A stretch of DNA of 64,000 nucleotides from NCBI RefSeq assembly GCF_044324875.1, contig NZ_CP172185.1; one strand, 5' to 3'. Each line of letters opens with the position of its first letter. Position 1 is the stretch's first letter. The position numbers were made by a program, and so were the translations under genes. The notes beneath the pieces were generated by a model. The model was given only the letters and a program-made list of their open reading frames with translations. It searched no databases and was not told the DNA's origin. Below are positions 16,739 to 57,373 of the stretch, in pieces. The DNA is from Escherichia coli (GTDB lineage: Bacteria; Pseudomonadota; Gammaproteobacteria; Enterobacterales; Enterobacteriaceae).

Positions 16739-17174
16739 AACAAAGCGCACGTTGTTACAATTTACGTTTTAAACCTACGTGCGCAATAACCCAATAACCC
16801 AGACTACGCCAACAGAAGTGCGTTTCTGGGGCGTGTTTTGCCAGGAGTTTAATCTCGCGTTTCGATGGTGAGCGGGCGAACCAGACCATAAATCACCATT
16901 GGCGTTCCGAGGCCAATCAGCAATAAACGGTAGATAATTGAAGGTTTAATACGCTTAATCTGTACTGTGGATGTTTTACTGGAGTTATTCATTAGTTTGG
17001 CCAATAGTTCCATTATTTCAATATGATAAGCCTCGCACTGTTGAAAAGCCAGGCTGCACATTTCAGAAAGTATATAAAAAACAATATGTCGTTATATAAA
17101 TAAGGAAATTGCACCGCATTATGGTATTTCATAATATGCGTTAATTGTTCTTTTCTATATTCTCTGAGGGAAAT

Positions 17175-54377: not shown

Positions 54378-54394
54378 TAACGCCGTTATTAAAA

Positions 54395-54421
54395 AGCCTG
54401 CCATCTGGCAGGCTTTTTTAT
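54395..54421 (+). terminator. Rho-independent terminator of glyQS
   Basis: Stem agcctgcc / ggcaggct, loop atct, followed by tttttt. Confidence 0.6.
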
Positions 54422-54673
54422 CGCTAAATAATAGAGCAACCTTTAATAATCTTCTGCTGAATAAAGATTGTCTCATATATTAATTTTATGAGATTTTTTT
54501 AGGATTATATCAAGGAGAAGAAACGAACTTATTAAGCTAGAATAGCCACGGGTGCTTGAGACTGTTTGTCTCAGGTATTCACCGAAAGGCAGACAGAGAA
54601 AAGCCCCACCTGACTATAAATCAAAGTGTACTGCACCCATTTTGTTGGACGATGAAATGGAATAGCCCCTGAT

Positions 54674-55195
54674 ATGTCAAAGCCAAAATACCCTTTTGAA
54701 AAGCGCCTTGAAGTCGTGAATCACTACTTCACTACTGATGATGGTTACAGGATCATCTCGGCACGTTTTGGTGTCCCCCGAACCCAGGTCAGGACATGGG
54801 TTGCCCTCTATGAAAAACATGGAGAAAAAGGTTTAATTCCCAAACCTAAAGGTGTTAGTGCTGATCCTGAGTTGCGTATTAAGGTCGTGAAAGCTGTGAT
54901 CGAGCAGCACATGTCCCTTAATCAGGCTGCTGCTCACTTTATGCTTGCTGGTAGTGGTTCTGTAGCCAGGTGGCTGAAGGTTTATGAAGAGCGCGGAGAA
55001 GCTGGTTTACGCGCGCTCAAGATTGGCACCAAAAGAAACATTGCAATATCAGTTGATCCAGAAAAAGCGGCATCAGCATTGGAGCTGTCAAAAGACCGAC
55101 GCATTGAGGATCTTGAAAGGCAAGTTCGATTTCTTGAAACGCGGCTTGTGTATCTAAAAAAGCTGAAAGCCTTAGCTCATCCCACGAAAAAGTGA
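54674..55195 (+). CDS. insJ: IS150 transposase OrfA (HTH)
   Basis: 173-aa ORF MSKPKYPFEKRLEVVNHYF...; slippery heptamer A-AAA-AAG at 55156-55162 in frame near its 3-prime end. Confidence 0.9.
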   Translation: MSKPKYPFEKRLEVVNHYFTTDDGYRIISARFGVPRTQVRTWVALYEKHGEKGLIPKPKGVSADPELRIKVVKAVIEQHMSLNQAAAHFMLAGSGSVARWLKVYEERGEAGLRALKIGTKRNIAISVDPEKAASALELSKDRRIEDLERQVRFLETRLVYLKKLKALAHPTKK

Positions 55196-56043
55196 AAGTA
55201 CTCAACGAGCTAAGGCAGTTTTATCCTCTTGATGAGCTTCTCAGGGCTGCGGAGATACCGCGCAGTACGTTTTATTACCATCTAAAGGCTCTCAGCAAGC
55301 CTGACAAGTATGCGGACGTTAAAAAGCGTATTGGTGAGATTTATCATGAGAATAGAGGCCGATACGGATACCGTAGGGTAACGCTGTCTCTTCATCGAGA
55401 AGGGAAACAGATTAACCATAAAGCTGTTCAGCGCCTGATGGGAACCCTCTCACTTAAGGCAGCGATTAAGGTCAAGCGATACCGCTCTTACAGAGGAGAG
55501 GTAGGGCAAACCGCCCCCAATGTTCTCCAAAGAGATTTCAAGGCTACGCGGCCAAACGAGAAGTGGGTTACCGATGTTACTGAATTTGCAGTCAATGGGC
55601 GCAAGCTGTATTTGTCTCCAGTAATAGATCTCTTCAACAACGAAGTTATTTCTTACAGCCTTTCGGAAAGACCAGTGATGAACATGGTCGAGAATATGCT
55701 CGATCAGGCATTCAAAAAGCTTAATCCTCACGAGCATCCTGTTCTGCACTCTGACCAGGGATGGCAGTATCGTATGAGAAGATATCAAAATATCCTTAAA
55801 GAATATGGTATTAAACAAAGCATGTCCAGAAAAGGCAATTGTCTGGATAATGCTGTGGTGGAGTGTTTCTTTGGAACCTTAAAATCGGAGTGTTTTTATC
55901 TTGATGAGTTCAGTAATATAAGCGAACTGAAGGATGCTGTTACGGAATATATTGAATACTACAACAGCAGAAGAATTAGCCTGAAATTAAAAGGTCTGAC
56001 TCCAATTGAATATCGGAATCAGACCTATATGCCTCGTGTTTAA
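55192..56043 (+). CDS. insK: IS150 transposase OrfB (DDE integrase core), expressed by -1 frameshift fusion with OrfA
   Basis: 283-aa ORF in the -1 frame relative to insJ; DDE/rve motifs ([19 protein letters not shown]). Confidence 0.9.
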
Positions 56044-56144
56044 CTGTCCAACTTTTTGGGGTCAGTACAAAGTGAGGCCCCTCTATGCATAGACACCATA
56101 AGGTTAGCCTCTTACTCGTTGGAAATCAACACAGGAGGCTGGGA

Positions 56145-56297
56145 ATGCCGCAGAAATATAGATTACTTTCTTTAATAGTGATTTGTTTCACGCTTTTATT
56201 TTTCACCTGGATGGTAAGAGATTCACTGTGTGAATTGCATATTAAACAGGGAAGTTATGAGCTGGCGGCATTTTTAGCCTGCAATTTGAAAGAGTAA
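56145..56297 (+). CDS. hokA: Hok-family small toxic membrane peptide
   Basis: 50 aa MPQKYRLLSLIVICFTLLFFTWMVRDSLCELHIKQGSYELAAFLACNLKE after AGGAGG SD; an in-frame upstream ATG at 56085 gives a 70-codon mok-like ORF. Confidence 0.8.
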   Translation: MPQKYRLLSLIVICFTLLFFTWMVRDSLCELHIKQGSYELAAFLACNLKE

Positions 56298-56455
56298 GAG
56301 TCTTCGGCGGGAAGTTATTCCCGCCTTTCTTACGGTGTTGGGTATTCTCAATGCACCCTAATTTATTTCTTTAATGAATGTTTTTTTTAAAAATACGAAT
56401 GGATTTGGCTATTAGATAAGTTTTTAATCGGGAACAGGAATGGTTCGGAGCCTTC

Positions 56456-56827
56456 ATGAATAAACTGCTTTTACTGTTGATAATGCTCTATCAACGACAT
56501 CTTTCTCCTCGCAAAGGATACCGCTGTGCTTACAGTGTGTTGTACCAAACGCAGGGATGTTCGGGAGCAGTCAAAGAGATTATTCAACAGAAAGGTGTTA
56601 TTGCAGGCTGGGGCGAGATACGTCAGCGTTTTGCAGATTGCCGACTTGCGGCACAGACAATCAGGCAGAAGCAACACCTGAACGAGGTAATACGTAAAAA
56701 GAAGAATAATAATTGTGATTGTTCCGGGTGCGATGGTGCGGTCTGTCGTGATTGCGACATTCCGGTGCCGGATCTGGATTGTTCCTGGGACTGTTCTTCT
56801 CTACATATAAAGCGTTTTTTCCAATAA
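56456..56827 (+). CDS. YidD-like (DUF37/hemolytic domain) protein with Cys-rich C-terminal tail
   Basis: 123-aa ORF; N-terminal LYQRHLSP...C...KGVIAGWGEIRQRFADC resembles the YidD family pattern; C-terminal CDCSGCDGAVCRDCD cluster. Confidence 0.5.
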   Translation: MNKLLLLLIMLYQRHLSPRKGYRCAYSVLYQTQGCSGAVKEIIQQKGVIAGWGEIRQRFADCRLAAQTIRQKQHLNEVIRKKKNNNCDCSGCDGAVCRDCDIPVPDLDCSWDCSSLHIKRFFQ

Positions 56828-56852
56828 AAAAATCCCCGCCAAATGGCAGGGA
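56826..56852 (-). terminator. Rho-independent terminator of cspA
   Basis: On the minus strand: stem tccctgcc / ggcgggga followed by ttttttt, about 30 nt after the cspA stop. Confidence 0.55.
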
Positions 56853-56880
56853 TCTTAGATTCTGTGCTTTTAAGCAGAGA

Positions 56881-57093
56881 TTACAGGCTGGTTACGTTAC
56901 CAGCTGCCGGGCCTTTAGCGCCGCTTTCGATGGTGAAGGACACTTTCTGACCTTCGTCCAGAGATTTGTAACCATCGTTCTGGATAGCAGAGAAGTGTAC
57001 GAACACGTCTTTAGAGCCATCGTCAGGAGTGATGAAGCCGAAGCCTTTGTCAGCGTTGAACCATTTTACGATACCAGTCATTTTACCGGACAT
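56881..57093 (-). CDS. cspA: Major cold-shock protein CspA
   Basis: 70 aa [38 protein letters not shown] with RNP1/RNP2 motifs. Confidence 0.95.
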
Positions 57094-57373
57094 AGTGTAT
57101 TACCTTTAATAATTAAGTGTGCCTTTCGGCGATATGGCGTGCTTTACAGATTTTGAAGCGTTAAAGGAATGTGCACTACGAGGGGTATCAACGATAACTC
57201 TTGAAGGGACTTGCCTTACTACACTGCTTTAATGGTCTGTACGTCAAACCGTTGATGTGCATTAAGCCACGCATTGGCGGGTGATGCAACAATTATTTTT
57301 CATATTTATGATTAATCGGTTGGAAAACGGTCCTGTCATCAGGACCGTAAACAGCAATAAAGTGGATAAAAGT

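Follow-up and report, generated by a model that had tools for sequence, protein, structure and literature searches.

The region between glyS and cspA was analysed in a stretch of 64,000 nucleotides of Escherichia coli DNA (contig NZ_CP172185.1 of assembly GCF_044324875.1; hereafter, the window). This glyS–hokA–cspA region of an E. coli lineage contains the hokA toxin gene of the hok/sok family, the overlapping mokA reading frame and the antisense gene sokA, and the hokA leader is interrupted by a complete copy of the insertion sequence (IS) IS150, a member of the IS3 family (Table 1). An earlier note on the window had described an IS150 of 1443 bp at 54627-56069, flanked by an AAG repeat, and both the element and the repeat were confirmed from the sequence. 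The element begins with tgtactgcaccc at 54627 and ends with ggggtcagtaca at 56069; its left junction reads ...ctataaatcaAAG before the boundary and TGTACTGCACCC after it, while the right junction reads GGGGTCAGTACA up to the last nucleotide of the element and AAGtgaggcccc beyond. The features that define IS150 were all found, namely a length of ∼1443 bp, terminal inverted repeats ending in 5′-TG...CA-3′, and a short (3-4 bp) target duplication. No more than this one copy of IS150 is present in the window.

A 3-bp repeat is by itself weak evidence of a simple insertion (one such repeat in 64 is expected by chance), and a comparison with an empty site was therefore made. Locus L013 (Logan SRR21141939), which was reached through an exact match to the GlyS protein of the window, corresponds to the window minus IS150 and one AAG; the alignment of 7256 bp is ungapped and contains a single mismatch. 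Since this near-identical locus shows the precise empty site, the view of the earlier note that this is a bona fide simple insertion can be considered settled. The comparison of the joined flanks with IS-free hok loci, which the note had proposed as a check, gave the same result: with a single AAG, they aligned without gaps to the hokA loci of four other E. coli lineages as well as to L013. The same insertion in hokA was found in two independent assemblies, one 100% identical to the window (L010) and the other with 1 mismatch (L008). The IS150 insertion in hokA is thus genuine and simple, and its presence varies within a single clone-like background. Across glyQS, identity to the window did not exceed 98.8% in any complete RefSeq genome.

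The terminal inverted repeats of the element span 31 nt and are imperfect (71% complementary). Over its full length, 1429 of the 1443 positions (99.0%) are identical to those of the annotated IS150 of K-12 MG1655. The A-AAA-AAG heptamer that the note had placed at 55156-55162 was found there, in the phase of insJ, and a −1 shift at this point yields the 456-aa InsJK fusion, which differs from the K-12 fusion protein by three substitutions (M159V, S221G and H378Y). The perfect stem of the frameshift-stimulating structure is formed by 55169-55178 paired with 55207-55216 (predicted fold, −20.4 kcal/mol; z = −3.0). Precomputed Pfam assignments, valid at the domain level, placed rve, rve_3, rve_2 and HTH_21 on the 456-aa product of L008, a locus identical to the window across IS150 and whose single base difference lies outside the element. 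The intact frames, heptamer, stem-loop and domains, plus the presence/absence polymorphism in an otherwise identical background, support the suggestion that this copy is transposition-competent; at the sequence level it looks so. A complete, apparently active IS150 would thus have entered the hokA/sokA leader by ordinary IS3-family transposition, duplicating AAG. Copies of IS150 (at least 80% coverage) are common, occurring in 3349 records of complete E. coli genomes.

Table 1. Features of the interrupted hokA locus in the window
Feature	Position	Strand	Basis or remark
IS150 (IS3 family), complete	54627-56069	+	1443 bp; 14 differences from K-12 IS150
AAG target-site duplication, left copy	54624-54626	.	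Read from sequence; single AAG at empty site
AAG target-site duplication, right copy	56070-56072	.	Read from sequence
Left inverted repeat (IRL)	54627-54657	+	Inverted-repeat comparison of IS ends
Right inverted repeat (IRR)	56039-56069	+	Inverted-repeat comparison of IS ends
insJ (orfA, 173 aa, HTH)	54674-55195	+	M159V relative to K-12; Pfam HTH_28 on identical L010 product
insK (orfB, 283 aa, rve/DDE integrase domain)	55192-56043	+	Open frame; Pfam
InsJK fusion, 456 aa	54674-56043	+	−1 shift, stop-free
A-AAA-AAG −1 frameshift heptamer	55156-55162	+	In phase with insJ; −1 frame runs on into insK
Frameshift-stimulating stem-loop	55169-55216	+	10-bp perfect stem GCCUUAGCUC/GAGCUAAGGC, 6 nt past heptamer
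15-bp near-perfect hairpin inside insK 3′ end, then TTTAATTT	55992-56026	−	Terminator-like, for transcription entering from the right
Putative hokA promoter −10 (TAGAAT), severed from mokA/hokA	54538-54543	+	Position only: 6 nt upstream of 54550
Orphaned hokA mRNA leader, first 77 nt	54550-54626	+	First ∼83 positions of RF01794
tac element GGGTGCTTGAG	54550-54560	+	5′ part of hokA leader
Anti-Shine-Dalgarno (anti-SD)/ucb box AGCCCC	54602-54607	+	Homology to R1 positions A70-C72 (PMC9841398)
TGAGGC: mok Shine-Dalgarno (SD) region and recurrent IS150 target motif	56073-56078	+	Same position used in other hok genes
mok SD GAGG	56074-56077	+	Right of IS150
mokA reading frame (70 aa), intact	56085-56297	+	Open reading frame (ORF); Pfam HOK_GEF on homologous products
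hokA (50 aa), intact	56145-56297	+	3 substitutions relative to K-12 HokA
hokA mRNA 3′ stem-loop	56306-56325	+	Part of 3′ end 56306-56358
fbi element CTCAATGCACCC	56347-56358	+	Complementary to tac element
sokA 3′ fragment, ∼34 nt with terminator end	54593-54626	−	Homologous to K-12 35-nt 'sokA pseudogene'
sokA 5′ fragment, ∼22-25 nt, complementary to mok SD and AUG	56070-56094	−	Now runs into IS150
Putative sokA promoter, intact	56101-56129	−	−35 TTGATT 56129-56124, 17-nt spacer, −10 TAACCT 56106-56101

The split hokA leader and the probable silencing or weak expression of hokA

The leader was delimited with RF01794 of Rfam; although it bears the name 'sok' there, this family describes the sense-strand leader of hok mRNA. 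In the window this family was matched in two pieces, 54550-54626 and 56070-56147 (the latter reaching the hokA AUG), with IS150 separating model positions 1 to ∼83 from positions ∼84 to 157. In the empty locus L013, it gave a single full-length match of 119.3 bits (gathering score 59), the orphaned leader being continuous with the sequence from 56073 onward. The proposal that IS150 parts mokA/hokA from their promoter and leader therefore holds. The contiguous RF01794 leader expected of a hok gene is missing from the window, which thus contains a disrupted member of the family; the Hok peptide (∼50 aa, HOK_GEF, with its overlapping mok frame) is present. Between the insertion point and the mok SD sequence GAGG downstream of it, there are only the duplication and 1 nt. 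As to the distance of 16 bp given earlier between the element and the reading frames, 15 nt (56070-56084) separate the IS end from the mokA ATG, 16 being the difference between coordinates 56085 and 56069.

On the left of IS150 there remain the putative hokA promoter and nucleotides 1-77 of the mRNA, with tac and the anti-SD box, and on the right the mok SD, mokA, hokA and fbi. The putative −10 box of hokA, TAGAAT (54538-54543), was not called by the promoter scan. When the 364-nt hokA mRNA was reconstituted, its predicted fold (−143.7 kcal/mol, z = −9) showed pairing between the 5′ and 3′ ends, in which the 5′ sequence GGGUGCUUGAG pairs with the 3′ sequence CUCAAUGCACCC. Such tac/fbi end pairing has been described for hok of plasmid R1 (PMC9841398). 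In the window, tac and fbi are both present, but IS150 lies between them and they would no longer share one transcript.

The earlier note had IS150 separate the hok/mok coding region from its promoter and leader, which is correct as far as it goes; sokA, which it did not mention, is cut in two as well. This antisense gene (∼60 nt when intact) is severed after ∼22-25 nt, leaving its putative promoter and 5′ recognition end on the hokA side and its 3′ 34 nt with the terminator beyond IS150, on the glyS side. The sequence at 56101-56129, which a consensus promoter scan did not call, is what we take to be the sokA promoter on account of its homology to the R1 sok promoter, and the start, 7 nt downstream of the −10 box, was assigned in the same way. 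The Sok promoter has been located in dcb (PMC9841398).

With tac and fbi on separate transcripts and Sok truncated, it would appear that the hok/sok control circuit cannot operate: the tac-fbi end pairing, the slow 3′ processing and the Sok-directed decay on which it depends would all be destroyed. Having lost its own promoter, hokA is most likely silent, or else weakly expressed by read-through from IS150. We hold with considerable confidence that IS150 transposed into the hokA/sokA leader at a preferred site, destroying the canonical circuit and leaving hokA most likely silent or weakly expressed.

Several points weigh against such silencing or against its importance. IS150 points the same way as hokA, and on the + strand from the insK stop (56043) to the mokA ATG the scan detected nothing resembling a terminator, so that read-through into hokA is possible. 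According to the R1 model (PMC9841398), a read-through RNA without the anti-SD box would be in a translatable conformation. Both reading frames, hokA and mokA, are undamaged, as is the putative sokA promoter. Further, the replacement of sokE::IS150 by sokE+ altered a phenotype (PMC11551753), so that IS150 insertions in hok loci are not necessarily inert. Silencing might also change little, since hokA of E. coli C, although its locus is intact, gave no post-segregational killing (bioRxiv 10.1101/2025.08.07.668861).

These observations can be assembled into an account in which hokA has been rewired rather than silenced: read-through from IS150 would drive a constitutively open mokA/hokA mRNA without tac or the anti-SD box, kept in check by a ∼105-nt Sok::IS150 antisense RNA running from the sokA promoter to the − strand hairpin, and the toxin would have become a cargo-like module under IS control. 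The absence from the scan of a + strand terminator-like site ahead of mokA, the undamaged hokA, mokA and putative sokA promoter sequences, and the different phenotypes of sokE::IS150 and sokE+ (PMC11551753) would all fit with it, as would the single orientation of IS150 in all the hok loci examined (see below). So would the terminator-like hairpin on the − strand at 56026-55992, which could shield IS150 from transcription coming in at its right end (read on the + strand, it is followed by no T tract). For the predicted 115-nt chimeric Sok::IS150 RNA, the modelled fold (−38.5 kcal/mol; z = −4.3) leaves the Sok 5′ end free and ends in a 15-bp hairpin with U's after it. Even so, we regard rewiring as unlikely. 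The consensus scan detected no outward or hybrid promoter, nor any promoter-like site, at the right IS150/flank junction, and the IS150 promoter is regarded as weak and autoregulated. The constant orientation is more simply accounted for by an asymmetric target motif, which is seen at non-hok sites too. In the K-12-type allele, moreover (1640 genomes), IS150 is inverted and the mok SD and ATG are gone, which argues that hokA expression is not needed for IS150 to be retained. A rewired hokA under IS control is thus a minority alternative to a disrupted gene with, most likely, weak expression or none.

The right end of IS150 (56031-56052) is 73% complementary, over 22 nt, to 56118-56139 in the hokA SD region. 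In a hypothetical read-through RNA, the structure of minimum energy pairs the two segments, but the ensemble is diffuse and the pairing may be due to chance.

A recurrent and oriented target for IS150

Matches reaching slightly past the IS150 ends led to other hok loci carrying the element. IS150 was found at the homologous nucleotide, in the same orientation and with a duplication of its own in hokC (ACC), hokB (AAC), hokE (CCC, before GGGGC) and two plasmid hok genes, i.e. the R1/F-type plasmid hok (CCA) and hok of pXH993 (ACC). At these sites the duplication ends 1 nt before GAGGC (or GGGGC). The same relationship holds for the known sokE::IS150 and for the IS150 insertions of hokC and hokB, all with a 3-bp duplication 1 nt before the mok SD as in the window; hokE, hokC and hokB are paralogous loci elsewhere on the chromosome, and hokE has GGGGC in place of GAGGC. 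The sokE::IS150 allele is known from XL1-Blue and more than 400 natural isolates (PMC11551753). In evolving lines of E. coli B, IS150 insertions were recorded in hokC/nhaA and in other hok and ldr loci (PMC5419217). The position reported for hokC in three evolved lineages (REL606 position 16,972) is the natural hokC site, homologous to the hokA site of the window; these insertions arose within 2000 laboratory generations (PMC5419217). The hokE and mokB positions given in that work fall outside the hok loci in NC_012967.1, and the hokC position alone was used.

The number of genomes with each junction was 901 for the window type of hokA, 1640 for the K-12 type of hokA, 435 for hokC, 632 for hokB and 498 for hokE. 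Together, these hok junctions represent 4106 of 5298 chromosomal IS150 places, or ∼77%, the counts being phylogenetically non-independent. When two InsJ alleles were followed, 13 of 20 diverse places were at hok loci, and 1 of the 20 was in the chaA/ldr region.

The motif is not restricted to the mok SD. At the tac site of R1 hok in IncF plasmids, in the chaA/ldr region and at an unrelated locus (L145), duplications of CGCT, CCGG and GAA, respectively, are each followed by T-GAGGC. Whether in the five paralogous hok loci or in unrelated DNA, the right end of IS150 thus lies 4-5 nt upstream of Y-GAGGC, and the element is always oriented in the same way. Three further non-homologous sites showed weaker versions (TGGCGC, CTGGGC and TGGGGT), and at one site the motif was absent. 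Over 13 distinct sites, the six positions past the duplication were Y in 13, G in 11, R in 12, G in 11, G in 12 and C in 12. An exact GAGGC occurred at 3 of the 7 sites that are non-homologous to the mok SD (P = 3e-8). Judging from these junctions, the hokA site of the window is a recurrent, orientation-specific target of IS150 and not an incidental one. The motif is insufficient by itself, since only 1 of the 29 Y-GAGGC sites in the window is occupied by IS150; a GC-rich hairpin (GAGGC...GCCTC) that starts at the motif, and which several of the sites have in common, may contribute to targeting.

On balance, we lean towards the idea that IS150 reads an asymmetric Y-GAGGC/GGGGC signal located 1 nt past the duplication, on the side of its right end, with type I toxin loci as its main landing pads. 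Targets of this kind have a precedent in the IS3 family. IS1397 and ISKpn1 use REP palindromic units as specific targets, a choice set by the transposase (PMC1525189); their target sequence differs from that of IS150, but in all three cases the target is defined by sequence or structure. That of IS150 lies at the 5′ base of a GC-rich repeat able to form a hairpin. The preference of IS150 is deduced here from natural junctions alone. In the literature searched, coverage of which was incomplete, no description of a Y-GAGGC motif for IS150 was found; the element has been credited with 'insertion preferences', with no detail given (PMC10379815), and hok/sok genes have been described as insertion hot spots of mobile elements (bioRxiv 10.1101/527788). 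A target resembling the IS150 ends, in the manner of IS911, was also considered; the similarity, judged by eye, was weak (TGA..CCCC only) and was not relied on.

The recurrence at hok loci might instead reflect selection for the loss of hok/sok, IS150 landing at random and only inactivating insertions being kept. The authors of evolution and population studies do take insertions in hok/sok as adaptive inactivation (PMC5419217; bioRxiv 10.1101/527788). However, many positions and both orientations would then be expected, while one phosphodiester and one orientation were seen in five paralogues, and the Y-GAGGC context is also present at the non-hok-type sites chaA/ldr and L145 and at the tac site of R1 hok. 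As the sole explanation, selection thus seems improbable, although it may add to the retention of hok insertions.

The insertion in the window is in itself already known, involving as it does a known element, a known kind of target and many sequenced genomes; its interest lies in the orientation-locked preference of IS150 for Y-GAGGC. Recognition of Y-GAGGC, if true, would explain the hot spots at hok and ldr that emerge from population surveys and evolution experiments, where parallel insertions are currently taken as selection against the toxins. The main driver of the repeated 'inactivation' of hok would then be the transposon and not selection, and about three quarters of chromosomal IS150 copies would be locked upstream of, and pointing into, hok toxin genes. 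If the transposase reads the motif, hok leaders would be safe havens for IS150, and this would be a second example of sequence-directed targeting in the IS3 family, one that is directly testable.

Other IS150 insertions were encountered in the course of this comparison. In the IncF plasmid NZ_CP015086.1 (L144) and others, IS150 occupies a second site in R1-type hok, at the mRNA 5′ end (tac), with a CGCT duplication; one of the plasmids with this tac-site insertion comes from an O25b:H4 strain. With a 240-bp IS150/hok junction as query, 1249 plasmid records gave a coverage of 80% or more, a number in which tac and SD sites are mixed. At locus L153 (GCA_000351905.1, 1038793-1043314), IS150 lies between chaA and kdsA, in the region of the ldr type I toxins. 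IS150 insertions near ldrC and ldrB have been reported in laboratory evolution (PMC5419217), and this second type I toxin family may carry the same IS150 target. Finally, at locus L164 (GCA_949767955.1, 4209598-4214119), a single IS150 has the left flank of hokE (ybdK side) and a hokC-type right flank, mixed flanks that read as the signature of a rearrangement via recombination between IS150 copies at two hok loci.

hokA alleles and the K-12 insertion

When the configurations of hokA were counted among 5426 complete E. coli genomes, the site was empty in 2815, occupied as in the window in 901 and occupied as in K-12 in 1640. A ST405-like strain (L002) has the junctions of the window, but its IS allele is that of K-12 and its mok allele is different. 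In two other loci (L160 and L161), hokA shares its right junction with the window, but the duplication is 5 bp long (AAGTG). The AAG and AAGTG duplications, the different IS alleles on different flanks and the isogenic empty site all favour repeated insertion, and on these sequences hokA has probably been struck by IS150 more than once. Gene conversion or precise excision at hokA is possible; reversion of sokE::IS150 to sokE+ has been reported (PMC11551753). In E. coli, insertion sequences frequently disrupt chromosomal hok/sok genes, and the window allele is annotated in hundreds of genomes; for annotation purposes, hokA should not be counted here as a functional toxin-antitoxin system.

The earlier note had pointed to comparable inactivation in laboratory E. 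coli. IS-mediated inactivation of chromosomal hok loci is indeed documented in laboratory strains (PMC7232551, citing Pedersen & Gerdes 1999; PMC11551753), and K-12 does have IS150 at hokA; the K-12 event, however, is a different allele. K-12 hokA::IS150 (insJ/insK b3557-b3558; NC_000913.3 3720633-3722075) involves the same element at the same glyS-cspA locus, and in both alleles sokA is cut and hokA is parted by IS150 from its promoter and leader. In the K-12 annotation, the mokA and sokA pseudogenes flank IS150, with a 35-nt sokA remnant on the glyS side. In K-12, however, the element has the opposite orientation, its flanks (GTA/AAC) show no target duplication, and a stretch of 38 bp, with the mok SD, the ATG and the 5′ end of Sok, is absent; in the window AAG is present on both sides and these 38 bp are kept. 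When tested for the K-12 junction sequence and orientation, the window allele showed neither, and the two should not be equated in annotation. The possibility that the window insertion is the K-12 event inherited by descent, to which the shared locus and element and left junctions no more than 2 bp apart (AAAG in the window, AAAGTT in K-12) might point, is extremely improbable and, as stated, refuted by the junction sequences, given the inverted element of K-12, its missing duplication and 38 bp, the 14 positions at which the IS alleles differ, and the isogenic empty site of the window allele.

If a window-type IS150 is inverted together with the next two bases (AA), the left junction of K-12 (AAAG-TT-IRR) is reproduced, while the 38-bp deletion of K-12 is left unexplained in one step. 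This suggests that the K-12 form might be a rearranged descendant of a window-type insertion, the deletion being unexplained.

K-12 reportedly also has IS186, an element of a different family from IS150, beside hokC and hokE; there it is said to lie downstream of the hok frame, resembling the insertion in the window in being close to, and not inside, the toxin frame.

Neighbouring genes and distant relatives

Between hokA and cspA, the window contains a 123-aa ORF (56456-56827, + strand) with a weak Pfam match to YidD; in other genomes it is annotated as 'membrane protein insertion efficiency factor YidD'. This yidD-like ORF is present in the window, in the ST405-like L002 and in CUPF09, and absent from K-12 (a further difference between the K-12 and window loci), O157:H7 and avian pathogenic E. 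coli (APEC) IMT5155, in which the gap between hokA and cspA is ∼190 bp. Further on, a full-length cspA thermoregulator (RF01766) was found on the − strand at 56826-57253 (501 bits). Overlapping the glyS terminator there is a match to STnc370 (54385-54451, − strand) which, at 46 bits, falls short of the gathering score of 54.

The 20-nt right end of IS150, AACTTTTTGGGGTCAGTACA, was also scanned for in species-representative genomes (matched loci L024-L143). Among the matches listed, there were no enterobacterial IS150 junctions, and the exact AACTTTTTGGGGTCAGTACA occurred in many Streptococcus, Granulicatella and Alistipes contigs, which carry relatives from the IS150 group. The OrfB protein encoded beside it was 47-53% identical to InsK at at least 24 loci, and 36% identical at one more. 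Since the exact 20 nt stand beside an OrfB of 47-53% identity, the tip of the inverted repeat appears to be far more conserved than the transposase.

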